Below, one piece after another: positions 38,707 through 57,779 of a stretch of DNA of 57,779 nucleotides. Origin of the DNA: a bacterium (GTDB lineage: Bacteria > Bacillota_I > Bacilli_A > RF39 > UBA660); contig RKAV01000062.1 of assembly GCA_014846175.1 (NCBI GenBank), forward strand, positions 1-57,779, in the 5' to 3' direction. Every line of letters starts with the position of its first letter. The first letter of the stretch is position 1. The position numbers were made by a program, and so were the translations under genes. The notes under the pieces are model-generated. The model did no database searches. It saw only the letters and a program-made list of their open reading frames with translations, and was not told the DNA's origin.

Positions 38707-38820
38707 ACATGATAGGTAGCTTTTACTATTTATCATGAGGTATAATCTACTGCTTTTTATGTAGATATACTTACCGAAACCCCCTGAAGTTCCCTCGAAA
38801 GAGGGAACGCTTTTTGTTTT
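38707..38820 (+). ncRNA. candidate small RNA or leader transcript (unknown family) whose 3' end is the IME integration site
   Basis: Sits between the promoter above and the GNRA-loop terminator TTCCCTC-GAAA-GAGGGAA plus T-run (38790-38820). Internal hairpins CATGATA...TATCATG and ATCTAC...GTAGAT. No ORF with an SD. Confidence 0.35.
38780..38789 (+). repeat. putative att core copy 1 (CCCCCTGAAG)
   Basis: An identical 10-mer recurs at 50167-50176, each time immediately followed by a GAAA-loop terminator hairpin and T-run, about 130 bp (copy 1) or about 95 bp (copy 2) from the 3' end of an integrase gene. Confidence 0.55.
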
Positions 38821-38851
38821 ATAAGGCTTTCTGAGGTTTTTAATTTTTTCT

Positions 38852-38892
38852 AGATACCAAGCCAGATACCAAAAACCTTTTTTCAGATACCA
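38852..38892 (+). repeat. three direct AGATACCA repeats (putative Int-1 arm-type sites)
   Basis: AGATACCA at 38852, 38864 and 38885, between the core and the int-1 stop codon. Confidence 0.5.
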
Positions 38893-38916
38893 AATTTATT
38901 TTTTATTTAAGTTTAT

Positions 38917-40035
38917 TTAAATACCTAGATTTAAATTATCTATGGTATTTTTTACATTAGTAAGATTATTTGGAAACATGTGAGCATAAGTATCTAATGT
39001 TTCTTTAGTACTAGCATGTCCTAAATACTTAGATACAGTTGTTACTGGTTGACCAGTATTAATTAATAATGATGCACAACTATGCCTAAAAGAGTGTAGT
39101 GGAATTCTTCTAATATTAGCACTTTCAGCAATTCGCTTATTTATTCTATGCATCATTCCAAATGTTAGTGGATCTAATTCTCCAAAGATAAACCATTTTT
39201 CATTAAATCCGTAGTATTTCTTTTTATCATTATAAAGATTTACTAAATCATTGTATAAGACATCGGTAAGAGGTAATGTTCTAATACTTTTAGAAGTTTT
39301 AGGTGGAGTTAATTCATAATATTTTTGGCTATCTTTAACGCTATTAGCTTGTTTAGTAATAGATACTAACTTATTATTCCAATCTATATCAGACCATTGG
39401 AGACCTCTTGCTTCGCCTCTACGTAATCCACAATAATATAACATTTCAAACATTGCTTTATCATTTAGATTGGTAGTTCCTGTGATATATTTTTGGAATT
39501 TCTCAAATGTGTAAACATCTTTTTCCACTTTCATTTCATTAGGGTCTTTAAAGAACTCTATTTTTTTATAAAATTTCATTAGATTGATATCATACATTTT
39601 CATTCCCCAATTAAGAATAATCTTAAGAAATTTTTGAACATCATTTCTAGTAGAACATTTAATAGGTTTATTCCATAAGTCTTGTTGGAACTTATGATAT
39701 AGATTCCCATCCATATCTTTTAGTTTAACATTCTCAAAATCAGCAAAATATCTTCTTCTTTTTAAATATGTTTCCATTGTTCTTCTTCTAACTTTATTTT
39801 TTTGAGATTCGATATATTGGTCGGTTAGAGTACCAAATGTCATATCCATATATCCACCAAATTCTACTTTACTATTTAAAAACTCTCTTTCAGCATTCAT
39901 AGCATCTAATTTAGTTTTATATGCTTTAGAAAAACTTTTTTTCCATTTTCCGTTTTTATCTTTTTCATTCCAATAATATTTATATTTACGACCATCTTTA
40001 GTCCATTGATTCTTAGGTAATTTATATATTCCCAT
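38917..40035 (-). CDS. int: tyrosine site-specific integrase (IME-1)
   Basis: N-terminal arm-binding-type segment (WTKDGRKYKYYW). Catalytic region GLRRGEARGL...HSFRHSCASLLI...GHASTKETLDTYAHMF has the R..H-x-x-R..Y pattern. SD AGGAGG. Confidence 0.9.
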   Translation of the reverse strand: MGIYKLPKNQWTKDGRKYKYYWNEKDKNGKWKKSFSKAYKTKLDAMNAEREFLNSKVEFGGYMDMTFGTLTDQYIESQKNKVRRRTMETYLKRRRYFADFENVKLKDMDGNLYHKFQQDLWNKPIKCSTRNDVQKFLKIILNWGMKMYDINLMKFYKKIEFFKDPNEMKVEKDVYTFEKFQKYITGTTNLNDKAMFEMLYYCGLRRGEARGLQWSDIDWNNKLVSITKQANSVKDSQKYYELTPPKTSKSIRTLPLTDVLYNDLVNLYNDKKKYYGFNEKWFIFGELDPLTFGMMHRINKRIAESANIRRIPLHSFRHSCASLLINTGQPVTTVSKYLGHASTKETLDTYAHMFPNNLTNVKNTIDNLNLGI

Positions 40036-40122
40036 ATTTCATTCCTCCTTTTTTGTTGGGATTTATAAATATACCAGTTCGTAACGATTATATTTTATCA
40101 TACAAACTACGAATATTTATAA

Positions 40123-41502
40123 TCATCTCTCAAAATCATCACGTGATTTATTTTTATTTAAATGTTGTTTTGCTTTATCGATAGCAAAGTCAGGATCATT
40201 AGCTTGATGCCAATTATATGGAATATGAAGTACATCTAATAATTTTGTAGTTAAAGAGTATATTTTGTTTTGAATCGTAATTTTAAAATTATTAAATTCT
40301 TCAGTTAATTCTTGAAATTTATTTTTCCAAAATCCTATTTCTTTATTTTTATTTTCAATAATTTCTTTTTGACTATCAATAATTTTCTTTTGATTAATAT
40401 AAGTCTCTCCTGATTTAAAGTTATTAACTTCTTGAGTCAAAGTTTTAATTTCTAAATCCTTTTTAATATTATCTTCAGCAAGTTCTTTTGAGTAAGCAGA
40501 TAGATTATCTATATCTTCATCTTTATATTGTTTTAAAATACCTTTTTTAATAGGATTTAAGATATCTTTAGATGTTTCTATATCAACTTTATCAATAAAC
40601 TTGTTTTCGGTTTTATTTGCCTCTTTTAATAGTTTGTTTTCATTTTTGATTTCTCGATTTAAAGCATTTAACTCAATTTGTTGTTTCATAGCATTAGTTA
40701 AATGAGTTTTATCTTCACCAATTTCTCCTCTAAATAGATTGAATCCTTTAGATTTGATAAATTCATTATAATCATCTTGGAGTAGAGTATAAGATGCATT
40801 ACCACCTTTTTGTTTCCAAAATTGATCTGAATTTAGAAATTTACCTTTAACAGTTTCATAAATATTTTTACCATTCTTATCTTTCTTTTGAATAGGTACT
40901 AATTTCTTTTCTCCTTTTTTATTAGTTATTTCGTGTTTTAATTGATGACCATTTTCATCTAACTCAAATACTTTTCTCTTAACAACATTCACTACTGGAG
41001 TGAAATATATATGCATATGTGGTGTAGATTCATCAAGATGTATTGCTGCATATCTTATATTTTCACTACCTACATATTCTTTAATAAAGTTTAAACTTTC
41101 ATCAAAGAACTTTTTTATTTCGGTTGGTAAATTATGATTTTCATCTATGACTACATGTCTAATAGGCTGACCTGCCTTATCGCCAGTTTTATAAAATTCT
41201 CCGGTATCTTTAAATTCCATTCCATAGTGTTCGAAGAATTCTTGACCACTTGTTATTATTAAACCATTCAATACTTTTGTACTTTTCTTATTTGGATTAT
41301 AGTTTATATTGTTTGAATAAAGATAATCAAAAGTTGAACTAGCTAGAGTAGGACCATCATAATTTATTAATTCTATATTATAAGGAGTTCTAGTGTTATC
41401 ATATTTACCAGAACCTTTTCTTTCTTTTAATTCTTTATCTATTCCACCAATATCTGATGCTTTAAATTTTTCTAATCGTAGTGCTTGTTTTCCTGAGTAC
41501 AT
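40123..41502 (-). CDS. mob: MobV-family relaxase (Mob/Pre plasmid recombination enzyme)
   Basis: N-terminus RLEKFKASDIGGIDKE and HLDESTPHMHIYFTPVV (HxDExxPHxH) are Mob_Pre signatures. Coiled-coil C-terminus. Confidence 0.85.
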   Translation of the reverse strand: MYSGKQALRLEKFKASDIGGIDKELKERKGSGKYDNTRTPYNIELINYDGPTLASSTFDYLYSNNINYNPNKKSTKVLNGLIITSGQEFFEHYGMEFKDTGEFYKTGDKAGQPIRHVVIDENHNLPTEIKKFFDESLNFIKEYVGSENIRYAAIHLDESTPHMHIYFTPVVNVVKRKVFELDENGHQLKHEITNKKGEKKLVPIQKKDKNGKNIYETVKGKFLNSDQFWKQKGGNASYTLLQDDYNEFIKSKGFNLFRGEIGEDKTHLTNAMKQQIELNALNREIKNENKLLKEANKTENKFIDKVDIETSKDILNPIKKGILKQYKDEDIDNLSAYSKELAEDNIKKDLEIKTLTQEVNNFKSGETYINQKKIIDSQKEIIENKNKEIGFWKNKFQELTEEFNNFKITIQNKIYSLTTKLLDVLHIPYNWHQANDPDFAIDKAKQHLNKNKSRDDFER

Positions 41503-41543: not shown

Positions 41544-41598
41544 CTATCTCACTAGGGCATAATATATGCCCAACCGTGAGCTAAGGAATATTCCTTAG
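41544..41598. other. candidate oriT region of IME-1
   Basis: Lies directly upstream of mob. CTATCTCACTAGGGCATA is conserved with IME-2, followed by palindromes GGGCATAATATATGCCC and CTAAGGAATATTCCTTAG. Confidence 0.4.
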
Positions 41599-41756: not shown

Positions 41757-42707
41757 TCATTCATTATTTTCAGAAGGTTCTTCATAAGAACAATGCCATA
41801 ATCTCTCATTAGCAGTTCTTTTACTTGTTATATGAAGACCTTCTTTCTCCAACAAACTTAGGTTTCTTTGAATTAAACCTCCAAGTTGTGTTGGTGTTAA
41901 TAAAATATTTGTTTTAGATAAGATATCTGATATAGTGTAATCAAAATCTTTCTTAGCAACTGCATATTTTATAAATAGTAGTAGATTATAATCAGTTTCA
42001 TCGTCAGTGTTTTCATCTATAACACTAAATGTTTGATTTTCATTTCTTTTTAAATTCAATTCTAATCTACTAAAATCTCTACCTTTATAATCTAAAGTTA
42101 GTTTATTACAATTACTTTTTGATTCTTTTAATTTCATAATTCCAGATGCATCAGCAGTTAGTCTGACACTACCCATAATTCCATTACTTTTATTTAAGTG
42201 ATGTGTAACAAATAATGTACAGTTATATTTTCTACATATTTCTTTAAACTTTTTAAATACAACATTATTTATTTCCTGATAATCGTTTTGATTATAGTTA
42301 CTATCAAATTTAATGTCTTTAAACATATCAATTATTACGAATAATGGTTTTTTATCAAAGGTTAATTCATGAATATCTCTTTCTATATCTCTGATATAAA
42401 AATCTGGAATATCATCTATATCTATAATGTGTAATTTATCTACATTAGGGTTCAAATTCATTAATTTAAATCGGTCTTGTAATTGATTTATGTCGCCCTC
42501 TGTGGTAATATATAAGACATGAGAGGGATTTACTTTGAATCCTAAAAAATCTTCTCCAGTAGTAAGAGAGAAGGCAAGTTGCTGAGCAAACATTGACTTG
42601 CCAACCTTAGGATGAGATACAAGTAGATAAACTCCATTTGATATCATTAGGTTTTCGACGATGATATCTTTTTTTATGCTTTTATTTACTTCGTTTATTT
42701 GTTTCAA
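41757..42707 (-). CDS. RecA-like AAA ATPase (RepA / AAA_25-like) of the IME backbone
   Basis: Walker A SHPKVGKS, Walker B-like LFVIIDMF, and THHLNK typical of the RepA/DnaB-C-like fold. TTG start with SD AAGGAG. Confidence 0.7.
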   Translation of the reverse strand: MKQINEVNKSIKKDIIVENLMISNGVYLLVSHPKVGKSMFAQQLAFSLTTGEDFLGFKVNPSHVLYITTEGDINQLQDRFKLMNLNPNVDKLHIIDIDDIPDFYIRDIERDIHELTFDKKPLFVIIDMFKDIKFDSNYNQNDYQEINNVVFKKFKEICRKYNCTLFVTHHLNKSNGIMGSVRLTADASGIMKLKESKSNCNKLTLDYKGRDFSRLELNLKRNENQTFSVIDENTDDETDYNLLLFIKYAVAKKDFDYTISDILSKTNILLTPTQLGGLIQRNLSLLEKEGLHITSKRTANERLWHCSYEEPSENNE

Positions 42708-42722
42708 TTTGTATCTCCTTTC

Positions 42723-42974
42723 TTACATGTTTTTAATTAATTGTTTACTAGAAACTCTAGATTCTAAATAAGAAATATCTATATCAAAGAATGCTACAAC
42801 TTCTTTAGTTGGTACAACAGACTTTGGAATTAGATAACCTTGCTTTTCTAATTTGTCTTTTATTTTCTTTTTAGCCTTTAGTGCAGAATTCCTACCAAGA
42901 TGTCCAAGTTTCATAATATCTTCTAGAGTGCACCATTGCTTAGCTACTAAATTTAATGTTTCTTCTGCAGTCAT
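42723..42974 (-). CDS. small HTH protein, excisionase / DUF3173-like (tentative)
   Basis: 83 aa, conserved with the 78-aa IME-2 protein (MTAEETL..V.KQWC.LED.MK...GRNSALK.K..IKDKL.KQGY..PK.VVP.KEVV...DI.I.YLESRV). Confidence 0.5.
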   Translation of the reverse strand: MTAEETLNLVAKQWCTLEDIMKLGHLGRNSALKAKKKIKDKLEKQGYLIPKSVVPTKEVVAFFDIDISYLESRVSSKQLIKNM

Positions 42975-43271: not shown

Positions 43272-43371
43272 TGTCCGACATTAAGGACAATTCAAATATA
43301 ACATTGTCCGAGAATACTGTCAATACAATTTGGCCGAAAAACTAGACATTTAAACAAAAATGTGGTAAAAT
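43272..43371. promoter_or_regulatory. divergent switch region of IME-1: operator-like TGKCCGA repeats and XRE promoter
   Basis: TGTCCGA at 43272 and 43305, TGGCCGA at 43331. Promoter is TAGACA-17 nt-TAAAAT with TG extension (43343-43371). Confidence 0.45.
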
Positions 43372-43411
43372 CAAATTATTGAGAGAAAAAAGGGGAGAAA
43401 GAAGTGTTATT

Positions 43412-43942
43412 ATGAACTCAGAAGAACTTAAAAATTTAATTGAATCAGCAAGAGAGGTTAAAGGTATTTCACAAAGAGAACTAGCTAAATTAACAGGTAT
43501 TAGTAGAAGTACTTTAAATGATTTAATTAATGGAAAAATAAAAAAAGTAGATATTGATGATCTACGTAAAATTGCAGAAACTTTAGATATGTCATTACAA
43601 AAGCTATTAAAAGCTTCTGGTTATGATGAAATGTCTTTATATTTTCATGCTCATAAAAATAAGGATAAATATGCTGATAAGTCTAGTAAAGATTTAAAAG
43701 AATTAATTGAACAATATAAAGAATCAGAAACGGATTTATTACAATTTGATTTTACTAAAAGAGAAAATGCTAGAAAAGCATCATTTATAATTTTTGAAGT
43801 AGCAGAACACTTGACTTTACTTAAAGATGGTAAAAGTAAATACACTTTAGAACAAGCAATAGAAGAATTAAATAAAGCACAAGAATTACTTAATCCAATT
43901 ATGGATAAGTATGATTATAAAAAATTACCAAAGAAAGATTAG
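43412..43942 (+). CDS. XRE-family regulator with about 110-aa C-terminal extension (IME-1)
   Basis: ISQRELAKLTGISRSTLNDLINGK HTH. Start chosen by alignment with the IME-2 paralogue. Conserved C-terminal end DKYDYKKLP. Confidence 0.75.
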   Translation: MNSEELKNLIESAREVKGISQRELAKLTGISRSTLNDLINGKIKKVDIDDLRKIAETLDMSLQKLLKASGYDEMSLYFHAHKNKDKYADKSSKDLKELIEQYKESETDLLQFDFTKRENARKASFIIFEVAEHLTLLKDGKSKYTLEQAIEELNKAQELLNPIMDKYDYKKLPKKD

Positions 43943-43957: not shown

Positions 43958-45373
43958 ATGCGAATAGGAATAGATATAGATAATGTTCTATCTAATTTTA
44001 ATGATGTATTATTAAACGAATATAAGAAACATGATAATGCAATAAATGGCAAAGGTATAGTTCATCAAGATTTATATATTAGAAATATGTTTAATTGGGA
44101 TAAAGAATATGAAAAAAATTTTTACAAAGAAAATATTGAGTATTTTGCAAGCCTATTTGAACCGATTGAAGAATGTTCTAAATATGTAAAATTATTAAAA
44201 GAAGAAGGAAATACAATTTATATCATTAGTGGTCGAGATAATGGTGAATATTCTAACCCATATAAAATGACCATTGATTGGTTAAAAAAATATGATATTG
44301 TTTATGATAAATTATTTTTGGTAGATGCTTATAATAGTCATTCAAAAACAGAAATATGTATAGAATACAATATTGATGTAATGATAGATGATTCTAAAAG
44401 AATGTGTAAGGACATAAAGGATAATGGTATTAGAGCATTACTTATGGATACACCATATAATAGAGATACAAATGAATTTGAAAGAGTTAATTCATGGAAA
44501 GAAATTTATAACAAATTATCTAATAAAAAAATTAATGTGATACTTGATACAGATACTTATAATGAATGTGATGACCAATTTGCATTAGCCTATTTAATTA
44601 AGTCACAAGATATGTTTAATATTGAGGCAATTACAGTAGCACCATATTCTCATACAAAAAGAGATGTAAAAGTAATAGATGGACAAGAGTTGAGTTATAA
44701 TGAAATTTTAAAAATATGTAATTGGTTAAATTTTGATACCATTGATAAAGTATTTAAAGGATCAATGGACTATATTCAAAATGGATATGATGAAAATAAT
44801 GATGCAGTAAATAAAATAATTGAAGTGGCGCTTAAAAACGATAAAACCTATATATTAGGAATTGGAGCTATAACTAATATTGCTTTAGCTATAAAAAAAG
44901 AACCTAAGATAATTGATAGAATAGAAATCATTTGGTTAGGTGGAAATGAAATAGAATATAAAGATAATTTAGAATATAATTTCAAACAAGATATAGAGGC
45001 TGTAAAAATAGTGTTTGATTCTACAGTGAAAATGACTATACTACCTTGCAAAAATGTAGTATCAGATTTAAGAATAGATATAGCTGAATTAAAAAGTAAA
45101 TTAGATAATAGGAAAGAATTAAATAAATATTTAATTGAGAGATTTTATAATGATGGATATCATGGAATACAAGAAACAAGAGTAATATGGGATATATCAG
45201 TAATAGCATATATGATAAATAAAAATTGGTTTGAAACAGAAAAAATTAGTTGTCCCAATATCAAGGAAGATAGTTCTTATGAATTAACTGATAATAGACA
45301 TAGTATAACTTTTGTAACTAAATTAGATAGAGATAGAATATATGAAGATTTATTTAGAAAGTTAGGAGTATGA
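43958..45373 (+). CDS. fusion protein: NT5C-type 5'(3')-deoxyribonucleotidase (HAD) N-terminal domain plus inosine-uridine-type nucleoside hydrolase-like C-terminal domain
   Basis: N-terminus MRIGIDIDNVLSN (HAD motif I DxDxV), IISGR, MIDD. From aa ~192, NVILDTDTYNECDDQFALAYL resembles the IUNH DxDxxxDD Ca-binding motif with two extra residues. Later GIGAITNIALA. Confidence 0.65.
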   Translation: MRIGIDIDNVLSNFNDVLLNEYKKHDNAINGKGIVHQDLYIRNMFNWDKEYEKNFYKENIEYFASLFEPIEECSKYVKLLKEEGNTIYIISGRDNGEYSNPYKMTIDWLKKYDIVYDKLFLVDAYNSHSKTEICIEYNIDVMIDDSKRMCKDIKDNGIRALLMDTPYNRDTNEFERVNSWKEIYNKLSNKKINVILDTDTYNECDDQFALAYLIKSQDMFNIEAITVAPYSHTKRDVKVIDGQELSYNEILKICNWLNFDTIDKVFKGSMDYIQNGYDENNDAVNKIIEVALKNDKTYILGIGAITNIALAIKKEPKIIDRIEIIWLGGNEIEYKDNLEYNFKQDIEAVKIVFDSTVKMTILPCKNVVSDLRIDIAELKSKLDNRKELNKYLIERFYNDGYHGIQETRVIWDISVIAYMINKNWFETEKISCPNIKEDSSYELTDNRHSITFVTKLDRDRIYEDLFRKLGV

Positions 45374-45376
45374 ATT

Positions 45377-45985
45377 ATGAAATTAACAAGCGATGAAGCA
45401 TTAAAACTAATTGAAAAAGAAAGAAATGAAACATCAAATGAACGATGGATAAATCATTCTATTTGTGTTGGTAATGCTGCAGGTAAAATAGCAGAAGCAT
45501 TAAATTTGAATATAGATTATGCAAAAACCTTAGGATATATTCATGATATTGGCAAAAAATTTAAGTATGATGAAAAAGGTGTATTTCCACATGCAATGAA
45601 TGGATATAAATATATTAAATCATTAGGATATGACGAGGATTATGCAGGAATTTGTATTAAACATTCATTTTTAAATAATGATATAGATTGTATTTCAAAC
45701 GATCGTGATGAAACAGATAAAAGTAATGAAAATTATGATTTTGTAAAACAGTATATAAGTAAAGAATATTCCATATATGAAAAAATTATAAATCTTTGCG
45801 ATTTAATGTGTACTACAAAAGTTTTAACAGTGGATAAAAGAATGATAGATTTGTTATATAGACATGGTGTCTATGCTAAAACACATTATCATATAGAAGA
45901 AACTATTAAATTGAAGGAATATTTTGATAATTTATTAGGATACAATTTATATGATTTGTTTTCTGAGATAAAAGAAAATTTGTAG
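45377..45985 (+). CDS. HD-domain phosphohydrolase (202 aa)
   Basis: INHSICVGNAAGKIAE...LGYIHDIGK carries the H...HD metal-binding signature. Similar in size to the YfbR-type 5'-deoxynucleotidases. Confidence 0.6.
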   Translation: MKLTSDEALKLIEKERNETSNERWINHSICVGNAAGKIAEALNLNIDYAKTLGYIHDIGKKFKYDEKGVFPHAMNGYKYIKSLGYDEDYAGICIKHSFLNNDIDCISNDRDETDKSNENYDFVKQYISKEYSIYEKIINLCDLMCTTKVLTVDKRMIDLLYRHGVYAKTHYHIEETIKLKEYFDNLLGYNLYDLFSEIKENL

Positions 45986-45993
45986 GTGATGTT

Positions 45994-46593
45994 ATGCGAA
46001 TAGGAATAGATATAGATGGCGTATTAACCGACATAGAACAATGGCAGTTAGATTATGGAAGTAAGTTTTATTTTGAAAAATATAATAAACAAATATTAGA
46101 TAATGAAGGCTATGAAACAACTGATATATTTAAAGTTGATAGTAAATTAGATGATGAGTTTTGGACTGAATATTTCAAAGATTATTCGATAAATGTTGAT
46201 GTTAGAAAATTGGCTAGCGAGGTAATTAAAAAACTAAAACAGGATGATAATGAAATTTATATTATTACCGCAAGAGGTAGTTTTTTATCACATTCTGCAA
46301 ATGTAATGCTTTTTGAAGAAAATAAAAATATTGTTTTAGAGTGGCTTAGAAAAAATGAAATTGAGTATGACAAAATAATATTTAGTCCAGAAGATAAACT
46401 TAGTATATGTATAGAAAATAATATTGATGTAATGATAGAAGATAAAGTTGATAACATAAATAAAATATCATCTAGAATTCCAGTTATATGTTTTCATGCA
46501 GGATATAACAAAAATTGTATTGGTGATAATATTATTAGATGTTATAGTTGGTATGACATATATAGTAAAATAAATAAAATGGTTCAAAAATGA
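45994..46593 (+). CDS. NT5C-type 5'(3')-deoxyribonucleotidase-like HAD protein
   Basis: MRIGIDIDGVLTD (DxDxV), IITAR, MIEDK. Paralogous to the N-terminal domain of the 471-aa protein. Confidence 0.6.
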   Translation: MRIGIDIDGVLTDIEQWQLDYGSKFYFEKYNKQILDNEGYETTDIFKVDSKLDDEFWTEYFKDYSINVDVRKLASEVIKKLKQDDNEIYIITARGSFLSHSANVMLFEENKNIVLEWLRKNEIEYDKIIFSPEDKLSICIENNIDVMIEDKVDNINKISSRIPVICFHAGYNKNCIGDNIIRCYSWYDIYSKINKMVQK

Positions 46594-50051: not shown

Positions 50052-50166
50052 AATCTCAAAAATAAAGCTATTTTTATAAGCTTTGATAAATTTTTATAAA
50101 AGAAAAAGCCTTATTTTGCAAGACTTTAACAAATTATTAAATTATTACGAACTGATAATAATATTT

Positions 50167-50176
50167 CCCCCTGAAG
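50167..50176 (+). repeat. putative att core copy 2 (CCCCCTGAAG)
   Basis: Identical to 38780-38789. Confidence 0.55.
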
Positions 50177-50208
50177 AGGAATCGAAAGATTCCTCATTTT
50201 TGTTTTTT
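50177..50208 (+). terminator. GAAA-loop terminator hairpin following core copy 2
   Basis: AGGAATC-GAAA-GATTCCT then CATTTTTGTTTTTT. Same architecture as 38790-38820 but a different stem sequence. Confidence 0.6.
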
Positions 50209-50260
50209 GCTTGAAATTACAAGGGTTTGTTAATTTTAAATTTTATAAATTAATGCTTTC

Positions 50261-50289
50261 AACTACCAATTAACTACCAAAATCTACCA
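50261..50289 (+). repeat. three direct AACTACCA/ATCTACCA repeats (putative Int-2 arm-type sites)
   Basis: AACTACCA at 50261 and 50272, ATCTACCA at 50282. They overlap the 3' end of int-2. Confidence 0.45.
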
Positions 50290-51415
50290 TTGTAGCATCA
50301 GTACAAGTTAGTTTATTTATGGTATTTACAGCATCATAAAGTTTATCTTTGAACATATGAGTATAAGTATCTAAAGTTTCTTCGATTGAAGCATGACCTA
50401 AGAAATCAGATACAACTGCTATATTAGTATTATTATTAATTAATAGTGATGCACAACTATGCCTAAAGTCGTGTAATCTTATTCTTTTAATATTAGCTTT
50501 TTTAGCAATTTCAATATTCTTATGCCTCATTTGATAGAATGTTATAGGAAGATAATTTCCAAATATAAACCATTCATCGTTAAATTCAGCAAATTGCTTT
50601 TGCTCATCATATAGCTTTTTTAAATCATTAAATAATACATTAGCAATAGGTAATATCCTATTACTTTTTTTAGTTTTTGGCTGTGTTAATTCATAATTTG
50701 TACAAGTTTCAGATCCATGTGTAACAGCTTGTTTTGTAATAGATACTGATTTATTATTCCAATTAATATCTTTCCATTGTAAGCCTCTAGCTTTACCTCT
50801 ACGAAGTCCTAGATAATATAAAGTTTCATACATACATTTAATTTGTAAGTTAGGGGATTCTGATATAAATTGATTAAATTCTTCTAAAGTATAGAAATCC
50901 ATTTCTTTCTTTAAATCAGATGCTGTAGTAAAACTTTCCATTCTGCTATAAAATTTACTCATATTGAAACCATAAGTCTTAGTTGCCCAATTAATTACAA
51001 TCTTTAAGAATTTTTGAATTTCATTTTTATAACTATTTGAACAATCTACTTTCATCATTTCAGCTCTCCATCTTTGATAATGAGTAGCATCCATATCTTT
51101 TAATTTAACTTTATCAAACATTCCAATATATTTAATTCTATCTCGATAAGTCTTTAAAGTTGACCATCTTACTATATTTTTTTGAACTTCGTAATATTTT
51201 GTGTACAAATCTTTGAAGGTCATATTCATATCTCCTTCAAATACTTCAGCCATTTTTAAATATTCTTTTTCAGCACGTTTTGCTTCTGCCTCAGTTTTAT
51301 ATGCTTTGGAAAACTTTTTGTGTTTTTTACCATCTAAACCTGTTTCCCAAATATACCATATATATTTACGACCATCTTTAGTCCATTTGCTTTCTTCTAA
51401 TAGTCTAACTGCCAT
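50270..51415 (-). CDS. int: tyrosine site-specific integrase (IME-2)
   Basis: GLRRGKARGL...HDFRHSCASLLI...GHASIEETLDTYTHMF. Paralogous to int-1. SD AGGAGG lies 7 nt before the ATG at 51415. Confidence 0.9.
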   Translation of the reverse strand: MAVRLLEESKWTKDGRKYIWYIWETGLDGKKHKKFSKAYKTEAEAKRAEKEYLKMAEVFEGDMNMTFKDLYTKYYEVQKNIVRWSTLKTYRDRIKYIGMFDKVKLKDMDATHYQRWRAEMMKVDCSNSYKNEIQKFLKIVINWATKTYGFNMSKFYSRMESFTTASDLKKEMDFYTLEEFNQFISESPNLQIKCMYETLYYLGLRRGKARGLQWKDINWNNKSVSITKQAVTHGSETCTNYELTQPKTKKSNRILPIANVLFNDLKKLYDEQKQFAEFNDEWFIFGNYLPITFYQMRHKNIEIAKKANIKRIRLHDFRHSCASLLINNNTNIAVVSDFLGHASIEETLDTYTHMFKDKLYDAVNTINKLTCTDATMVDFGS

Positions 51416-51509
51416 TTTCATTCCTCCTTTGCTTAGATTAGACTATTCACGCACTTCAGTTGGTAGTTTACCATATTTAATTATTTTTTCCAACTGAAGT
51501 GCGATAGTT

Positions 51510-52922
51510 TTATCTTTCTATTTCAAAATCATCTTTATTTTTATGGTTTTTACTATAATAACCATAATTAATAGCATCAGCTATATTTTCATATTCTTCT
51601 AATTTATCTTTAGGTTTATCTCTACCTAAAACTTTATCTAGTGCTTTACATATCTTTTTAAGTAGAAATTTCCATTTATCAACTTCAGTTTCTAATTTAG
51701 TTTTTAAACTCTCGATATTATTACTTAGTATATTAACTAAATCATTTAATCTACCAATTTCTTGTTTTTGTTCCTTAATTATTTTATTTTTCTTTAATAA
51801 TTCATTGTTATTTTTAAAAGTTTTGTTTTCTTCAGTAAGTTTAGCAATTTCCATATCTTTATTAGCGTTATCAGTACTTAAGATGATTATTTTGTGTTGT
51901 AATCCTTTTGTGTATTTAATTATCTTAAAAACATCATCTTCTTTATAACCACCAAGTTTTCTTTTAGTAGGATTTAATACATTACTATAATCACTATTAT
52001 ATTCGAGATTTTTAAGTCCATTTTTAGAGTTTTCAATAATCTTTAAGGTATTCTCCTTTTCTTTATTTAATTCTTCTAATTCGACTTTTTTCTCGGCAAT
52101 ATCATAATCTAGTTTTGATTGATTTTCTTTATTAGAACCAACATCTCCACGATAGAGATTAAATCCTTTTTCAGTAATAAACTTATTAAAGTCATTTTGC
52201 ATTTGATGAAAAGATAATTTACCACCTTTATCTTTCCAAAATTGATCACAGTTTAAAAATTTACCATTTACTTCTTCATAAACAATTTTACCTTTATCAT
52301 CACGAAGTAATTTAGGTACAATAGAGGTAGTTCTATCTTTCTTTTTTATTTCTTCTTTAACAACATTACCATTTTCATCTTTTACAAAACATTTTCTTTT
52401 AACTTTAGTAACTACGGGAACAAAATAAGCTTGTAGGTGAGGAGTATCTTCATCATAGTGAATTTGTGATAATAAGATATTTTCTTCACCAACATATTCT
52501 TTTAAAAACTCCATACAAGAGTCAAAAAAGTAACTTACAGCTTTTGTTATATCTCCTTTAGCTTTAATATCAGGAATCATTACTGCTTGTCCTTTTTTAT
52601 CTCCTGTATGATAAGTTCTACCACTATCTTTAAATTTCATTCCAAGTGATTGAAAGAATTCAGGACCACTTGTGAATGTTACACCATTTAAAAGGTTAGT
52701 GTTAGGTCTATTTTGATATTCAATATTTCTTACTTTTAAATTATTCTTAACTTCTTGATATAAATTATTTTGAGTAAGAGATACATATTCAACATTAAAT
52801 ATAGTTCTATCTTTATCATAATTACCTGTACCTTTTCTATCAGTCATTTCTACACCAATATTATAAAGGTCATCTTTTTTACATTGAGTTTCAACTCGTA
52901 CTACTTGTTTTCCATCATACAA
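51510..52922 (-). CDS. mob: MobV-family relaxase (IME-2)
   Basis: HYDEDTPHLQAYFVPVV and collinear similarity to the IME-1 relaxase. TTG start with SD AAGGAG. Confidence 0.8.
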   Translation of the reverse strand: MYDGKQVVRVETQCKKDDLYNIGVEMTDRKGTGNYDKDRTIFNVEYVSLTQNNLYQEVKNNLKVRNIEYQNRPNTNLLNGVTFTSGPEFFQSLGMKFKDSGRTYHTGDKKGQAVMIPDIKAKGDITKAVSYFFDSCMEFLKEYVGEENILLSQIHYDEDTPHLQAYFVPVVTKVKRKCFVKDENGNVVKEEIKKKDRTTSIVPKLLRDDKGKIVYEEVNGKFLNCDQFWKDKGGKLSFHQMQNDFNKFITEKGFNLYRGDVGSNKENQSKLDYDIAEKKVELEELNKEKENTLKIIENSKNGLKNLEYNSDYSNVLNPTKRKLGGYKEDDVFKIIKYTKGLQHKIIILSTDNANKDMEIAKLTEENKTFKNNNELLKKNKIIKEQKQEIGRLNDLVNILSNNIESLKTKLETEVDKWKFLLKKICKALDKVLGRDKPKDKLEEYENIADAINYGYYSKNHKNKDDFEIER

Positions 52923-52970: not shown

Positions 52971-53046
52971 CTATCTCACTAGGGCATAGCCCAATCGTGA
53001 GTTTAAGGATTTCACCCTTAAAAATCCCAAATAATCACTATCGCCA
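52971..53046. other. candidate oriT region of IME-2
   Basis: CTATCTCACTAGGGCATA (52971-52988), CCCAATCGTGAG and CACTATCGCCA (53036-53046) are shared with the IME-1 mob-upstream region. Confidence 0.4.
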
Positions 53047-53119: not shown

Positions 53120-54027
53120 TTAATTACTAGTTCTAGACTTTGTTATATGAAGGCCTTCTTTTTCTAATAAATCAATATTTAAATTTAATGATCTTCCAAA
53201 ACGTAGAGCAGTTGTTTTTAACTTAGCATCATGAATAATACTTGTAGAAGTAAATTCAAAATCTTTTTTATATGATGCATACTTAATAAAAAGAATTAAG
53301 TTTTCATCAATTTCATCATCTTCAATTGAATTACTTATTTTAAAAGTTTGATTTTTATTTCTTTTTAAATCTATATCAAAACCTTCAAAATCTCTATTAA
53401 TTACTTTCATAGTTAAATGATTATGGTCATTTCTATTCTCAAACAAAGTAATTTTACCATCTATACAAGCATCAAAAGCTGTACTACCTAATGTTTCATT
53501 CCTTTTATTTAAGTGATGAGTAAATAGAATAGTGATATTGTATTTCTCGCATAATTCTCTTAACTTAGGCATTAACTTTTGAGCTACATCTTGAAAATCA
53601 TTAATATCATAAGAGATACCTAAATCCATATCTTTAAGCATATCTATTATTACAAATTTATTAGTAGTTTTATCACCAGCAAAATCAGCAATTTCATATT
53701 CATGGTCAAATATACTTATAGTAGATTTTCCATCTCTCTATCCATGATAAATAATGAGCTTTCCTTTGGAGTTAATTGTAATGTTTTGTATCTGTCTTGT
53801 AATTGACCAAAATCAGACTCTGTGCTAATATATAATACAGGTGAAAGAGTTACTTTGTGTCCTAGAAATGGTAATCCATTTGTAAGGCAGTAGGAAAGTT
53901 GCAGTGCCAACATAGACTTTCCTACTTTAGGTTTTGATACAAGTAAATATACACCTTTAGACCTCATTAGTCCTTCGACAATGATGTCTTTTTTTTCACT
54001 TGTATCTATCTCTTCAATTAGTTTCAT
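53120..54027 (-). pseudogene. RecA-like AAA ATPase of IME-2, split by a frameshift
   Basis: ORF 53716..54027 carries the Walker A (SKPKVGKS). ORF 53120..53641 carries FTHHLNK and the C-terminus. The C-terminal frame stays open upstream to about 53745 (GKSTISIFDHEYEIADF...KFVIIDMLKDM), so a single frame change near 53745-53760 explains the split. Confidence 0.7.
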
Positions 54028-54030: not shown

Positions 54031-54267
54031 TTACGCTCCTTTCTTTACTCGAGATTCTAAATAACCTATATTAATATCTAAATAATCTACTACTTCTTTC
54101 ATAGGTACTACATGCTTTGGAACCATATAACCTTGTTTAGTAAGTTTATCTTTAATAGTTCGTTTAATTTTAAGAGCAGAATTTCTACCAACTTGGCTAA
54201 TTTTCATTAAATCTTCTAAATTGCACCATTGTTTTGATACGATTTCTAAAGTTTCCTCAGCAGTCAT
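54031..54267 (-). CDS. small HTH protein, excisionase / DUF3173-like (IME-2)
   Basis: Paralogue of 42723..42974. Confidence 0.5.
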   Translation of the reverse strand: MTAEETLEIVSKQWCNLEDLMKISQVGRNSALKIKRTIKDKLTKQGYMVPKHVVPMKEVVDYLDINIGYLESRVKKGA

Positions 54268-54431: not shown

Positions 54432-54956
54432 ATGGATAAAGAGATTACTTTAAAAACTTTAATTGAAGGTGGAAGAGATATAAAGAATTTTTCTCAAAGA
54501 GAACTTGCCAGAAGAATAGGATTAAGTAATACATCATTAAATGATCTTGAAAATGGAAAAGTTCAAAAACCTGATATAGAAGTATTAAGAAAAATTGCTG
54601 AAGAACTCGATTTGTCTTTAGAACAATTATTAAAAGCAGCAGGATATAATGCCATAACAACAATGCTAACTAGTGATGAGTTTCAAAATAAATCAACTAG
54701 AGATTTAAAAAATATTATTAAAGAGTGCAGAAACTTTAAGTATGACATTTTAGATTGGGATAGTAATAAACGAAATATAACAAGAAATGTAATGGCTGAT
54801 TTAGAAAGAATTACACATAAATTAGAGCTTATAAGAGATAATCGAGGAATAAACTACACATTAGATAATGCGATAGAAGATATTAATAAATCTTTAGAAG
54901 AGTTAAAAGATGTAGTTAAGAAATATGATTATAGTAAATTACCTAATGACTTATAG
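54432..54956 (+). CDS. XRE-family regulator with C-terminal extension (IME-2)
   Basis: FSQRELARRIGLSNTSLNDLENGK HTH. C-terminal KKYDYSKLP as in IME-1. Confidence 0.75.
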   Translation: MDKEITLKTLIEGGRDIKNFSQRELARRIGLSNTSLNDLENGKVQKPDIEVLRKIAEELDLSLEQLLKAAGYNAITTMLTSDEFQNKSTRDLKNIIKECRNFKYDILDWDSNKRNITRNVMADLERITHKLELIRDNRGINYTLDNAIEDINKSLEELKDVVKKYDYSKLPNDL

Positions 54957-54974: not shown

Positions 54975-55772
54975 ATGATTTTAGTGAATAATGAAAAGTT
55001 AAATAATTTAAACTCTATTTCTGTAAATGATTTATATATTTTGACTGATTTTGATGGAACAATTACTAAGGATAATAGTGATAGTTCTTGGGCAAGTATT
55101 TTTAAAAATCCTAAAGTTACAAAAGAATTTATTGATGAATGTATAAGAATATTTAGTCATTATCATAAATTTGAAATTGATGAGTCATTATCAATTGAAG
55201 AAAAAATGCCAATCATGAGTGAATGGTATAGAAAAAATATAGAAACATTAATTAATTTTGGTATTACAGAAGAAATTATAAACTATGCTGCTAATAACGA
55301 AAGTATTATGGCTTTTCGAGATGGAGCAATTGATTTTTTAAAGACAATGTATGAAAAAAATATTCCTATTATAGTAATATCAGCAGGTGTTGGTAATATT
55401 ATTGAACAATTTTTAATTAGAAATAATTGCAATTATTCAAATATTTATATTTGTTCTAATTTCTTGGAATATGAAAAAGGCATAGTTAAAGGAGTTAGAG
55501 ATAATAATTTAACTCATCCATTAAATAAAAATGAAGTATTTTTACCATCAAATATTAAAAGTAAAATTATAGGCAGAAATAATATTTTACTTCTTGGCAA
55601 TAGTGTTTTAGATATAAATATGGCAGGTACTAATAGAAATGTTTATAAATTGGGTTTTTTAGATGAAAAAATAGAAGAAAGATTAGAATCTTTTAAAGAA
55701 AACTACGATATAGTTTGTACAGATAATACTTCTTATGATGAAATACGAAGTAAAATAAAAATTCTAAATTAG
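54975..55772 (+). CDS. HAD-superfamily nucleotidase, pyrimidine 5'-nucleotidase (UMPH-1)-like (tentative)
   Basis: LTDFDGTITKD (DxDxT motif I), cap-like insertion, VISAGVGN and GNSVLD motifs. Confidence 0.5.
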   Translation: MILVNNEKLNNLNSISVNDLYILTDFDGTITKDNSDSSWASIFKNPKVTKEFIDECIRIFSHYHKFEIDESLSIEEKMPIMSEWYRKNIETLINFGITEEIINYAANNESIMAFRDGAIDFLKTMYEKNIPIIVISAGVGNIIEQFLIRNNCNYSNIYICSNFLEYEKGIVKGVRDNNLTHPLNKNEVFLPSNIKSKIIGRNNILLLGNSVLDINMAGTNRNVYKLGFLDEKIEERLESFKENYDIVCTDNTSYDEIRSKIKILN

Positions 55773-55786
55773 GTCGTGGTGATATA

Positions 55787-56472
55787 ATGAAAAAAGAGTC
55801 CTTTGATAAATTATTAAAGATTATGTCTAAATGTGATAAATGCACTAATTTTAAGTGTAAAGAGAAGTCATTGATAAATATTTATAATGATTATAACTTT
55901 AGTTCAAATATACCATCTATATGGACTGATTGGTTTAATAGACTAGATTCCAAGATTATGATTATAGGTCAAGACTGGGGACCTTATAATGATATGAAAA
56001 AACTAAATAATTTGTTAAAAGAAGATAAAAGTAATTGGAATGAATTAATTGAGTCATAAAAAAGTAATACAAAAAAATATTAGAAAAATATATAAAAGAA
56101 TCTTCTAACAGTAGGTATTCGTTAAATGATATATTTATAACAAATGCAATAATGTGTGCAAGACAGGGAGATAATTATAGAGGAAATAATATTGATTTAA
56201 AAAAATCTACTCTAAAATGTAGTGATTTCTTATTAAAACAAATCGAGATAGTAAAGCCAAAAGTAATATTAACTTTAGGATATTATCCATTATTATCTTT
56301 ATCTAACTTATTAAATTTTGATATAGAAAGAACACTAAAGGAAACTATTAGAAAATATCCTGAAATAAATAAAGATGATTATGTTATTATTCCTTTATAT
56401 CACCCAGTAGCACAAATTAAAAAGGCTGAACAGTTAGTGCAATATAAAAAAATATGGAATTATATTGACTAA
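55787..56472 (+). pseudogene. uracil-DNA-glycosylase-superfamily gene, disrupted
   Basis: IMIIGQDWGP (motif A-like) lies in ORF 55787..56059. FITNAIMCAR and LYHPVA (motif B-like) lie in the second frame, which is open from 56068. A TAA at 56057 plus a frame change in or near the A7 run at 56071-56077 separate the halves. Confidence 0.55.
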
Positions 56473-56493
56473 AAATAAGGAGAACGTTATTAT

Positions 56494-56873
56494 ATGAAAG
56501 TATTAAGTTTAACTGAACCATACGCAACTTTAATTAAAAATGGTATTAAAACAATAGAAACTAGAAGTTGGAAAACTAATTATAGAGGTAAATTATACAT
56601 TCATGCAAGTTCAACAAAAATTCCAAAAGAATATAAAAATAGTAAAGAGTTGATATTAATTGTTTAAATTATGGAAACATAATTTGCTCTTGTGAATTAA
56701 TTGATTGTATTGAAATGACAGAAGAATTTTTAGAAAAAATGAAGAAAAATAAAAATGAATATATAACAGGTATTTATGCTGTTGGAAGATATGCATGGAT
56801 ATTAAAAGATATAAAAGTATTAGACAAACCTATTAAAGCCAAAGGATATTTAGGTATTTGGAATTTTGATTAA
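56494..56873 (+). pseudogene. ASCH-domain gene with a frameshift
   Basis: MKVLSLTEPYATLIKNGIKTIETRSWKTNYRGKLYIHAS... stops at 56665-56667. The rest (NYGNIICSCELIDCIEM...GRYAWILKDIKVLDKPIKAKGYLGIWNF) continues in another frame to the TAA at 56871-56873. Confidence 0.6.
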
Positions 56874-56935
56874 ATAATAATTACGGCTTGATGATAACCA
56901 TATACAATTGATTTTAAAAAGGAGATGTGAAATAA

Positions 56936-57244
56936 ATGAAGATAATAACAGTGTGTGGTAGTTTGAAATTTGTTAATGAAATGATGGAAATAACAGAAAA
57001 AATGGAACTAGAAGGTAATTGTATGTTAGTACCTATATATAATCCATCAAAAACTAGCAAAGATGACTTTACTGAAGAAGAAGCATTAATGCTTGATAAA
57101 ATGCATAAAGAAAGAATAAAACTATCTGATGCTATTTTAGTTGTAAATGTTAATGATTATATAGGTAGTAGCACTAAAAGTGAAATCGAGTTTGCTAAAT
57201 CATTAAATAAAGAAATAATGTATTATACTGATTTAATAAAATAA
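56936..57244 (+). CDS. small nucleoside 2-deoxyribosyltransferase-like protein (tentative)
   Basis: MKIITVCGSLKF...SDAILVVNVNDYIGSSTKSEIEFAKSLNKEI follows the pattern I associate with the Nuc_deoxyri_tr2-type family (ICGSxxF ... yiG.st..Ei.yA). SD AAGGAG. Confidence 0.4.
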   Translation: MKIITVCGSLKFVNEMMEITEKMELEGNCMLVPIYNPSKTSKDDFTEEEALMLDKMHKERIKLSDAILVVNVNDYIGSSTKSEIEFAKSLNKEIMYYTDLIK

Positions 57245-57271
57245 TTTTTAACAAATATACAAAGGTGAAGT

Positions 57272-57779
57272 ATGACTAATTTTTTAAAATGGTTAAGTAT
57301 TTTATCTACTCGAGAGTGGGCTACAATAATTTGGATTTTGATTTTATCAGTATATGTATTAATTAATAAGAAAACAAGATATTCTGCCCTAGACGTTATT
57401 AAAATATTATTTGGAAAGAATTTAATAAAAATATGGATAATAACTTCTTTATATGTGATTTTAATAACATTATTATTTTCTAAAACGTCAATATGGGATA
57501 ATTGTTACATAAAGGATATTATTATATGGTATATAACATCAGGAGTAATATTTTGTTTTAATGCAGCATCTAGGGAATCTGATGAACAATATATTTGGAA
57601 AGTATTAAAAGATAATTTAAAGTTTACAATTGTTATAGAGTTTTTTTATAGTACATTTACATTTAAACTTTGGGTTGAGTTACTAATTATTCCTATTATT
57701 ACATTCTTAGCAATGGTAGATCCTGTTGCTGAAAGAAAAGAAGAATACAAAATTGCACATAAGTTTATGCAATCAATAT
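57272..57779 (+). CDS. membrane protein, 3' end beyond the window
   Basis: My own translation from the ATG at 57272 (SD AAAGGTGA) is open to the window end: MTNFLKWLSILSTREWATIIWILILSVYVLINKK..., with several hydrophobic helices. Confidence 0.45.
   Translation, partial: MTNFLKWLSILSTREWATIIWILILSVYVLINKKTRYSALDVIKILFGKNLIKIWIITSLYVILITLLFSKTSIWDNCYIKDIIIWYITSGVIFCFNAASRESDEQYIWKVLKDNLKFTIVIEFFYSTFTFKLWVELLIIPIITFLAMVDPVAERKEEYKIAHKFMQSI

Follow-up and report, generated by a model that had tools for sequence, protein, structure and literature searches.

Two related integrative mobilizable elements, probably accreted in tandem at the 3' end of a small RNA gene downstream of recG

Two modules with the same gene order lie side by side to the right of recG in the stretch of DNA analyzed here (the window, 57,779 nucleotides), which comes from an uncultured low-GC gut bacterium. 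How did they come to share one site, and by what means would they move? A first-pass annotation had read them as two related integrative mobilizable elements (IMEs) in tandem, and this was borne out by two copies of CCCCCTGAAG plus hairpin, colinear backbones, and protein identities of 39 to 70%. They are very probably two distinct IMEs of one family that site-specific recombination has stacked head-to-tail on the 3' end of a small RNA (sRNA) gene directly downstream of recG. The remaining 38 kb of the window consist of housekeeping genes.

The core sequence CCCCCTGAAG occurs exactly twice in the window, both times on the plus strand (38780-38789 and 50167-50176); 0.02 copies were expected, and two matches were found in 0 of 100 shuffles. 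Each copy runs directly into a GC-rich, GAAA-looped hairpin followed by a T-run (38789-38808 and 50176-50195). A third core plus hairpin, predicted earlier to mark the right end of element 2, is present on the near-identical contig L007 (20385-20394, window position 58351-58360), which shows 2 mismatches in 19,813 bp with window positions 37967-57779. Read from L007, element 2 extends past the window and has its right end about 570 bp beyond base 57779. Element 1 measures 11.4 kb and element 2 8.2 kb. The chromosomal side of the array is organized as follows.

36639..38639, plus strand: recG, chromosomal flank and syntenic marker (Pfam RecG_wedge, DEAD, Helicase_C, RecG_dom3_C)
38672..38700, plus strand: target sRNA promoter (TTGACA, 17-nt spacer, TATTAT; 11/12 consensus positions)
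38706..38815, plus strand: target sRNA gene, start approximate (fold z-score of -6.3; covariation)
38780..38789, plus strand: core copy 1, attL of element 1, CCCCCTGAAG

The earlier reading had placed the insertion site downstream of recG, which is right, and had missed the sRNA gene (~38706-38815) whose 3' end is the actual target. The integration target is the invariant 3' tail of this conserved, strongly covarying gene, not recG, which lies upstream of the sRNA in most related loci. The sRNA promoter was the top-scoring site in the scanned region, and its position is kept in about 70 related loci. The RNA comprises hairpin 1 (38708-38737), hairpin 2 (38738-38772), a single-stranded tail ending in the core, and a terminator supplied by element 1. 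An alignment of 58 sequences showed 94% paired cells (75% in shuffles) and 211 compensatory cells (60 in shuffles). The Rfam search returned no family at threshold. A weak match to RAGATH-12 RNA (RF03149; window 38762-38838, 26.1 bits, E = 0.002) extends from the sRNA tail across the GAAA-loop hairpin into the beginning of element 1; membership in this family was rejected, the score being far under the gathering score of 75 and six other sRNA-bearing loci giving no match at E = 0.1 or better.

Element 1 occupies the interval between the two core copies of the window.

38789..38808, plus strand: element-1-borne terminator hairpin, GTTCCCTC GAAA GAGGGAAC plus T-run (terminator scan)
38850..38893, plus strand: left arm with AGATACCA repeated three times in direct orientation (at 38852, 38864, and 38885), putative arm-type sites for the integrase
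38917..40035, minus strand: int1, tyrosine integrase, 372 aa (Pfam Phage_integrase, E = 2e-26; PHROG integrase, E = 8e-55)
40123..41502, minus strand: mob1, MobV-like relaxase, 459 aa (Pfam Mob_Pre, E = 2e-20)
41544..41598, minus strand: candidate oriT upstream of mob1, hairpin plus inverted repeat CTCACGGTTGGGC..GCCCTAGTGAG ATAG
41757..42707, minus strand: AAA_25 (RecA/DnaB-like) ATPase, 316 aa (Pfam AAA_25, E = 3e-26)
42723..42974, minus strand: conserved small protein, 83 aa
42993..43253, minus strand: 86-aa ORF, element 1 only, without counterpart in element 2 (no family)
43295..43371: divergent promoter-like sites separating the leftward backbone operon from XRE and cargo (minus strand TTGACA/TATATT, plus strand TAGACA/TAAAAT)
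43379..43942, plus strand: XRE-family regulator, 187 aa (Pfam HTH_3, E = 3e-14)
43958..50024, plus strand: cargo (NT5C plus nucleoside-hydrolase fusion, HD phosphohydrolase, NT5C, 405-aa membrane protein, 685-aa protein)
50029..50053, plus strand: right arm, AGATACCA and AGATACTA repeats
50167..50176, plus strand: core copy 2 (attR for element 1, attL for element 2)

The int1 translation shows the HxxR, H, and Y motifs. The AAA_25 protein matched primase/helicase C-terminal domains in PHROG and may act as a replication helicase once the element is excised. What had been called a small HTH is indeed a small protein present in both elements, but the HTH label found no counterpart: the 83-aa protein had no Pfam or NCBIfam match, and its AlphaFold2 model (pLDDT of 93.5, five helices) retrieved nothing better than E = 0.35 from the PDB in a fold search. 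Among the cargo, no family could be assigned to the 685-aa protein, and PADLOC gave no match for four of the five proteins, the fifth (HD) showing weak Cas3-type HD-domain matches only.

Element 2 begins at the core copy where element 1 ends.

50176..50195, plus strand: element-2-borne terminator hairpin, GAGGAATC GAAA GATTCCTC plus T-run (terminator scan)
50259..50291, plus strand: left arm, three (A)ACTACCA repeats
50270..51421, minus strand: int2, tyrosine integrase, 383 aa (Pfam Phage_integrase, E = 2e-25)
51510..52922, minus strand: mob2, MobV-like relaxase, 470 aa, motif HYDEDTPHLQ (Pfam Mob_Pre, E = 3e-12)
52971..53021, minus strand: candidate oriT
53120..54027, minus strand: AAA_25 gene, disrupted (private 2-bp insertion near 53733)
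54031..54267, minus strand: small protein, 78 aa, paralogous to the 83-aa protein of element 1
54432..54956, plus strand: XRE-family regulator, 174 aa (Pfam HTH_3)
54975..57779, plus strand: cargo (UMPH-1 5'-nucleotidase, UDG, ASCH, 102-aa protein, membrane protein truncated at the window edge)

The backbones of the two elements are colinear, with a DNA identity of about 70 to 73%; both have int, mob, AAA_25, and the small protein on the minus strand and XRE followed by cargo on the plus strand. The order described earlier therefore applies to both elements, except that the AAA_25 gene of element 2 is split by the 2-bp insertion. Phage_integrase, Mob_Pre, AAA_25, and HTH_3 were detected in both. 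The proteins had been described as paralogous but diverged, and the peptides quoted in support were found in the translations: the relaxases are 39% identical, the XRE regulators 44%, the integrases 50%, and the small proteins 70%. The arm repeats are private to each element at both ends (AGATACCA in element 1 and AACTACCA in element 2), and the right end of element 2 (L007 20240-20280) carries two further (A)ACTACCA copies and one inverted copy. In other hosts, the AAA_25 gene of element 2 is intact (318 aa). The window's copy also has a broken UDG (nonsense mutation at 56057 and a 1-bp deletion) and a broken ASCH (13-bp deletion at 56647). Since AAA_25 and two cargo genes were lost to mutations private to this copy, it may be partly disabled.

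In related genomes, element 2 and an element-1-type backbone are each found alone at this same site; the modules are not scattered over unconnected loci flanked by differing repeats. Element 2 stands alone at the sRNA/recG site in L001, L002, L004, L005, and L006, with an identical element-side junction sequence. Its DNA is 98.7 to 99.5% identical (about 99.3%) across L001, L003, L004, L005, and L006, while the RecG proteins of hosts carrying near-identical copies are just 49 to 69% identical to that of the window; similarity between hosts begins and stops exactly at the core. In L003, element 2 lies inside dtd (left junction gtgtt/CCCCCTGAAGagg, right junction taaccgCCC/agtagaa), and the displaced 3' end of dtd picks up directly after it, which fixes the exact ends of the element. 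The terminator hairpin does not differ between hosts of element 2, this dtd insertion included. The window's copy has only 18 private substitutions in 7.6 kb relative to copies in other genera, so its lineage was on the move very recently. The 102-aa protein of element 2 was recorded in 576 blocks of the sequence collection. In another species (L139/L140), the same site carries an element-1-type backbone by itself, with different cargo, the same hairpin and arm repeats, a 94% identical Int, and 86.5% identical backbone DNA. In L001/L006, a decayed element-1-type island with AGATACCA arms, an XRE1-like fragment (81% identical), and no int sits on the right-hand side of element 2, opposite to the window order, and other right junctions of element 2 lead into further, different arms. 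The order in the array is thus not fixed.

The relaxases point to conjugative mobilization. As in IMESag-rpsI and pMV158-type MobV (MobM) systems, they carry a Mob_Pre domain and an HxDExxPHxH metal-binding motif (HLDESTPHMH in Mob1, aligned with that of MobM, PDB 4LVI, at E = 4e-13), an inverted repeat lies upstream of mob as a candidate oriT, and there is no coupling protein. The closest annotated relatives are relaxases of small mobilizable plasmids. They nevertheless differ from plasmid MobV relaxases, being just 24 to 27% identical, falling under the NCBIfam MobV cut-off (84.7 bits for Mob1, cut-off of 100), having a long C-terminal coiled region (~200 aa), and showing no histidine at the position of the catalytic His22 of MobM in two alignments; Mob2 also has Q for the last motif His. 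The putative oriT is the sole block conserved between the two mob-upstream spacers. The absence of phage structural and T4SS genes noted earlier was confirmed in both elements using Pfam and PHROG, which also revealed no coupling-protein gene, so the pore of a helper would be needed and both elements probably depend on a conjugative helper. No such helper was seen within the window, and no recognisable excisionase was found in the elements.

Could these islands be phage-inducible (PICI-like) satellites or remnants of prophages, with a helper phage packaging them? Their layout has satellite traits: int at one end, a divergent XRE-type switch, an AAA_25 protein matching phage primase/helicase PHROGs, a best integrase match to phage integrase phrog_1, a size of 8 to 11 kb, and cargo and neighbouring islands that look defence-like (AbiE and Gabija-like genes). 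We consider this very improbable, however, given the MobV-type relaxase with its conserved upstream repeat in both elements, the plasmid affinities of that relaxase, the lack of terminase, capsid, portal, and packaging-redirection genes or PHROG structural matches, and the lack of DNA similarity to 50,697 phage records. It is very improbable that the islands are fixed (cis-mobilizable or dead) markers of an old hotspot, neither able to excise or transfer now. The lesions in element 2 would fit this, as would the common occurrence at the site of integrase-less islands bounded by the same core, and the attP junction of the excised element 2 circle was not found in JGI metagenome contigs; yet both elements keep an intact int, mob, XRE, and set of att arms, no gene of element 1 is interrupted, and element 2 has its few private substitutions. 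Shared gene order, shared orientation, and backbone similarity could also come from a single island duplicated in place and then diverged, or from a composite built by ordinary recombination, with the repeat a by-product and not an att site. This has almost no probability left and is already contradicted: element 2 shares 99.3% identity with copies in distant hosts and just ~72% with its neighbour, each element occurs alone elsewhere, their order is reversed in L001/L006, their arm repeats differ, and the dtd insertion ends exactly at the core.

Under the accretion of two IMEs, the tyrosine integrase would recombine the element-borne CCCCCTGAAG with the identical copy in the sRNA's invariant, single-stranded tail, and the element-specific direct repeats are likely arm-type binding sites of the integrase. 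Because a hairpin and T-run are carried right behind the core, integration would swap the sRNA terminator, and the sRNA gene would keep one. The core would be regenerated at both ends of every integrated element, so that a second element could enter at either end, giving the array sRNA-core-E1-core-E2-core-(further island). The leftward operon (small protein, AAA_25 helicase-like ATPase, relaxase, and integrase) opposes XRE across the predicted divergent promoters; XRE derepression probably triggers excision, and the AAA_25 protein may help the circle to replicate. [quoted passage not shown]

Tandem IME accretion is already well documented, and the stacking seen here is of the ordinary kind. 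Streptococcal IMEs accrete at the 3' ends of rpsI, rpmG, and rplL (Coluzzi et al. 2017, PMC5357655; reviewed in Guedon et al. 2017, PMC5704250), including IME1-IME2 arrays at one att site whose integrases are 21 to 69% identical (50% here). They resemble our elements in size (~10 kb), in having a tyrosine integrase and a relaxase and no T4SS, in integrating at a conserved gene 3' end that the element restores, in sharing one core, and in having frequent decayed neighbours (CIMEs). The differences lie in the host, here an uncultured low-GC gut Bacilli lineage, in the target, a small non-coding RNA gene and not a ribosomal protein or tRNA gene, and in the module set, which joins one MobV-like relaxase to an AAA_25 ATPase and a tyrosine integrase, whereas streptococcal single-MobV elements were reported with serine integrases and ParB-like proteins (PMC5357655, PMC5704250). 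Islands and prophages at the 3' ends of tRNA, tmRNA, and sRNA genes likewise have their core in the 3' portion of a gene for a structured RNA, bring a replacement 3' end, place their integrase gene next to the RNA gene, and form hotspots with island arrays. In contrast to these, the RNA here is without an Rfam family match, only its terminator is replaced, and the crossover falls in a single-stranded C-rich tail.

The 57.8-kb window contains exactly two copies of the 10-nt core CCCCCTGAAG, starting at 38780 and 50167 and both on the + strand, against an expected count of 0.02; none of 100 shuffled sequences contained two copies. Each copy leads into a hairpin that has an 8-bp GC-rich stem and a GAAA loop and is followed by a T-run (38789-38808 and 50176-50195), and these hairpins were the top two terminator-like sites of the region in a terminator scan. 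This confirms the core-plus-hairpin arrangement that the first-pass annotation had placed at the start of each of two related, head-to-tail integrative mobilizable elements (IMEs; element 1 and element 2). The third copy that it anticipated at the right end of element 2 is also present, in a near-identical contig reaching past the window end (L007, ENA ERZ27241583; 2 mismatches in 19,813 bp relative to window 37967-57779, with 2.2 kb extra to the right). It lies at L007 20385-20394, corresponding to window position 58351-58360, about 190 bp past a membrane-protein gene cut by the window end, and its hairpin is formed by GGAGCCGAAAGGCTCC and a T-run. The elements are thus bounded by direct repeats containing the target core (38780, 50167, and L007 20385), with core-to-core lengths of 11,387 bp for element 1 and 8,184 bp for element 2. 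Element-specific repeats found at both ends are putative arm-type integrase binding sites, listed here with the predicted circle junctions.

Repeats at the element ends and predicted junctions of the excised circles
38852, 38864, and 38885: element 1 left arm, next to int1, three copies of AGATACCA
50031 and 50044: element 1 right arm, just inside the right end, AGATACCA and AGATACTA
50261-50289: element 2 left arm, next to int2, three copies of (A)ACTACCA
L007 20240-20280: element 2 right arm, inside the right end, two direct copies and one inverted copy of (A)ACTACCA
Predicted attP1 (element 1 circle junction): …CTGATAATAATATTT-CCCCCTGAAG-TTCCCTCGAAAGAGGG…
Predicted attP2 (element 2 circle junction): …GAATTCTAACCG-CCCCCTGAAG-AGGAATCGAAAG…

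To the right of each core, the minus strand encodes a tyrosine integrase, a Mob_Pre relaxase, an AAA_25 ATPase, and a small conserved protein, while the plus strand encodes an XRE regulator followed by cargo. Between the leftward operon and the XRE and cargo genes lie divergent promoter-like sites. The two backbones are colinear (70-73% DNA identity), and their proteins are 50% (Int), 39% (Mob), 70% (small protein), and 44% (XRE) identical, in agreement with the earlier description of a shared gene order and orientation with paralogous but diverged products. Each element has its own recombinase, matching Phage_integrase (E = 2e-26 for element 1 and 2e-25 for element 2), and both translations show the catalytic motifs HxxR, H, and Y. 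The AAA_25 protein is similar to the C-terminal helicase portion of primase-helicases from phages and plasmids; it may serve to replicate the circle after excision. The small protein (83 aa in element 1 and 78 aa in element 2) is the most conserved of the backbone. The AlphaFold2 model of the 83-aa protein is confident; a role as excisionase was considered and set aside, since it matched no Pfam, NCBIfam, or PHROG family and its best PDB fold match was no better than E = 0.35.

The Mob proteins score 73.7 and 47.5 bits against Mob_Pre (gathering score, 25.5), match the MobM structure 4LVI (E = 4e-13), and share 24-27% identity with relaxases from small mobilizable plasmids of Firmicutes; the 84.7 bits obtained with NCBIfam NF041497 stay below the MobV-family cutoff of 100. 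The MobV metal-binding motif HxDExxPHxH reads HLDESTPHMH in Mob1 of element 1 and HxDExTPHLQ in Mob2 of element 2 and several relatives, with Q replacing the final H. At the position of the catalytic His22 of MobM, in a weakly aligned region, all nine family members compared (phmmer, MAFFT) have a gap or L/M, so that the nucleophile of these relaxases is uncertain. In the two spacers upstream of mob, conservation is confined to one block, a hairpin with CTCACGnTTGGGC…GCCCTAGTGAG-ATAG after it (41544-41598 and 52971-53021). This inverted repeat, whose arms are also given as CTCACGNTTGGGC..GCCCTAGTGAGATAG, is a candidate oriT and a putative nicking substrate of Mob1 and Mob2. We also observed that the tyrosine of GxGxYD is invariant within this MobV-like relaxase family (window 40123-41502 and 51510-52922).

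None of the ORFs of either element encodes a T4SS or coupling protein. In agreement with the first-pass annotation, domain and PHROG searches revealed no phage structural genes in the elements; packaging genes and DNA similarity to phages were not found either. A phage-inducible chromosomal island or other satellite was judged unlikely on the same grounds, the elements carrying a relaxase instead. The window outside the elements consists of housekeeping genes. Mobilization would thus require a helper, of which none is seen here.

The region into which the elements inserted holds the following features.

Features to the left of and at the first core
34227-35117: ten clustered tRNA genes about 1.5 kb upstream of recG, which these elements leave unused
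36639-38639: recG, confirmed
38672: TTGACA of a near-consensus promoter between recG and the first core, followed by a 17-nt spacer and TATTAT
About 38706-38815, + strand: small RNA (sRNA) gene, comprising two hairpins, a single-stranded tail ending in the core, and a terminator (fold z-score, -6.3)

The integration target is this sRNA gene and not recG. Scanning species-representative genomes with CCRAAACCCCCTGAAG retrieved about 80 low-GC loci, labeled uncultured Bacilli, Tenericutes, Mycoplasma, Erysipelotrichaceae, and Clostridium sp. CAG:302, all with the same architecture and usually right after recG. In an alignment of 58 sequences, the three helices were 94% paired, versus 75% in shuffles and at most 53% with the partners slid, compensatory cells numbered 211 versus 60 expected, and the C-rich tail ACCAAAACCCCCUGAAG was invariant. 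Every terminator stem starts with the final G of the core, and the stems vary between occupants, so that each element swaps the terminator of the sRNA for its own. As expected of a variable hotspot, the sRNA loci include seemingly empty sites (e.g., L009, L032, and L042), nine sites with an Int1/2-like gene directly after the core, and many contigs of metagenome-assembled genomes (MAGs) ending exactly at CCCCCTGAAG (L012, L023, L071, L078, L080, and others), the last suggesting that assemblies break at the hotspot. At gathering scores, Rfam detected only tRNAs in the whole window and no family in the sRNA. A permissive scan of the att region gave only RAGATH-12, a membership rejected because the match (26.1 bits against a gathering score of 75) was below threshold and the family was absent from six other sRNA-carrying loci, where the Rfam scan returned nothing. 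A search of the window for the complement of the sRNA tail gave no convincing target.

Many related genomes also carry, upstream of recG, a covarying hairpin that displays in its loop the same 10-mer as the sRNA tail (CCCCCUGAAG); AUAAAAAGAAUAAAAAGGGGUUGGCUAGUGUGAUACUAGC and a further hairpin come next (L001:850-960, L004:980-1090, L006, L021, L024, L028, L041, L055, L079, L094, L127, and L133). This RNA-like motif has no Rfam match and is absent from the window, where 36540-36638 differs. It may pair or be coregulated with the downstream sRNA, which hints at a regulatory RNA pair around recG.

Both elements are recently mobile units, each independent of the other. Element 2 is found in many other hosts. 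Exact copies of its 102-aa protein are recorded in 576 blocks of the sequence collection. The element also occurs in runs labeled chicken gut, bovine gut, and wastewater and in Hadza-named metagenome samples. It lies alone directly after recG in four related loci (L001, L002, L004, and L006); in a fifth (L005), the RNA gene it occupies is the same but the surroundings are rearranged. Its DNA in other hosts is 98.7-99.5% identical to the window copy (about 99.3% across hosts), while the RecG proteins of these hosts are only 49-69% identical to that of the window, a disparity that points indirectly to excision and helper-aided transfer. On the left, the similarity sets in precisely at the core, and the element-borne hairpin is the same in every host; on the right, the similarity again stops precisely at the core. 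In another species (L003:3221-11420), element 2 lies within the 3' part of dtd (D-Tyr-tRNA deacylase), with the junctions gtgtt|CCCCCTGAAGagg… on the left and …taaccgCCC|agtagaaactgg… on the right. Only CCC is shared at the right junction, dtd is shortened by about 30 codons, and its displaced C-terminal coding sequence picks up right after the element. This is a secondary-site insertion, which fixes the ends of element 2 and puts the crossover within the core's left part.

The window copy of element 2 differs from five copies in other hosts by only 18 private substitutions in 7.6 kb and by several private lesions: the AAA_25 gene is split by 2 bp inserted near 53733, UDG has acquired a stop codon at 56057 and a 1-bp deletion (lesions at 56057-56078), and ASCH has lost 13 bp at 56647. 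These three genes are intact in the other five copies. int2, mob2, and XRE2 are intact in the window copy, and no gene of element 1 is interrupted.

Copies of element 1 proper are rare: its exact Int is recorded only in the window-matching contigs L007 and L129, and its exact 685-aa protein only in these and L008. In another species (L139 and L140), a backbone of this type occupies the same site alone, with different cargo. Its Int is 94% identical and its DNA 86.5% identical over 5.1 kb, and it shares the hairpin and the three AGATACCA repeats. Elsewhere, a 97%-identical Mob is joined to a different 327-aa integrase at a different locus (L130-L132), indicating module shuffling. In L001 and L006, the right end of element 2 adjoins a variant of the core (CCCCCTGAAA) with a further hairpin; beyond these lie AGATACCA repeats, a fragment resembling XRE1 (81% identical), and cargo, without an integrase. 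This is a decayed element-1-type island, in the reverse of the window order. Six further right junctions of element 2 lead to several other hairpins and arm repeats, with up to three cores within 9-14 kb.

These observations bear on how the array arose. The middle core (50167) lies between the right arm of element 1 and the left arm of element 2, and the two integrases are distinct (50% identical). The comparison with related genomes proposed in the first-pass annotation showed element 2 and the element-1-type backbone each alone at the same sRNA/recG site. Duplication in place is excluded by the single occupancies, the reversed order, and the varied right junctions, and repeated site-specific accretion at one att site, as first proposed, is the only economical account. 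Entry at attL or attR gives the same array, so that the order of arrival cannot be deduced from it. The exact attP junction of element 2 had no match in JGI metagenome contigs, and a shorter pattern of its right end retrieved six loci, all chromosomal arrays and no circle. The assembled contigs of public runs were fragmentary and uninformative on excision, except for one from wastewater that tracks the right end of element 1 as far as 50178 before diverging.

Among Firmicutes, the tandem stacking of IMEs is textbook knowledge. Streptococcal IMEs are well known to accumulate at the 3' end of a shared target gene, whether their integrases are related or not and often next to decayed elements, and IMEs in general, tandem accretion included, have been reviewed (PMC5357655, PMC5704250). 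Compared with the streptococcal arrays, this locus belongs to an uncultured lineage, uses a noncoding sRNA as target, and has an unusual combination of modules; it is clearly a new example of tandem accretion and not a new kind of system. It documents an active integration hotspot in reduced-genome, as yet unculturable gut bacteria, with one 8-kb element nearly identical across genera, and can serve as a model for the traffic of mobile DNA in such a lineage. The core and hairpin are a precise marker to delimit islands in these MAGs and account for the frequent breaks of MAG contigs at this very point, and the by-products are a strongly covarying sRNA family without Rfam match and a recurrent nucleotide-catabolism cargo. 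A broader reading, which we hold only tentatively and consider rather unlikely, is that the conserved tail ACCAAAACCCCCUGAAG, next to recG across an uncultured low-GC gut Bacilli lineage, is a landing pad common to a guild of IMEs and integrase-less islands, each with its own terminator, whose traffic rewrites the 3' end of the sRNA; the hinted recG RNA pair and a possible new cargo module would belong to the same picture.

The cargo of this IME family repeatedly concerns nucleotide or nucleoside catabolism. In the window (43958-46593 and 54975-57244), it includes a fusion of NT5C with a nucleoside hydrolase, HD, NT5C, a UMPH-1 5'-nucleotidase, UDG, and ASCH, and a relative (L130:5141-8702) carries two NT5C along with HAD and MFS. 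PADLOC gave nothing on the cargo beyond weak Cas3-type HD-domain matches for the HD protein. The recurrent cargo could represent a new kind of nucleotide-pool or antiphage module.

To the right of the third core, L007 encodes AbiEi-like, DUF7695, and AAA_21 proteins (20395-22058), with no integrase within 1.7 kb. This flank resembles element-type arms in L113, L034, and L102, where variable defense-like genes come next, also without an integrase; the segment is either a third, integrase-less island or host DNA. More widely, defense-type genes without a nearby integrase lie to the right of the last core (L007:20395-22058, L004:11425-20309, L113, L021, L034, and L102), among them AbiEi/AbiEii-like pairs, OLD plus UvrD (Gabija-like), GmrSD, a methylase, and Fic, suggesting that the hotspot also acts as a defense island or holds a string of decayed elements.
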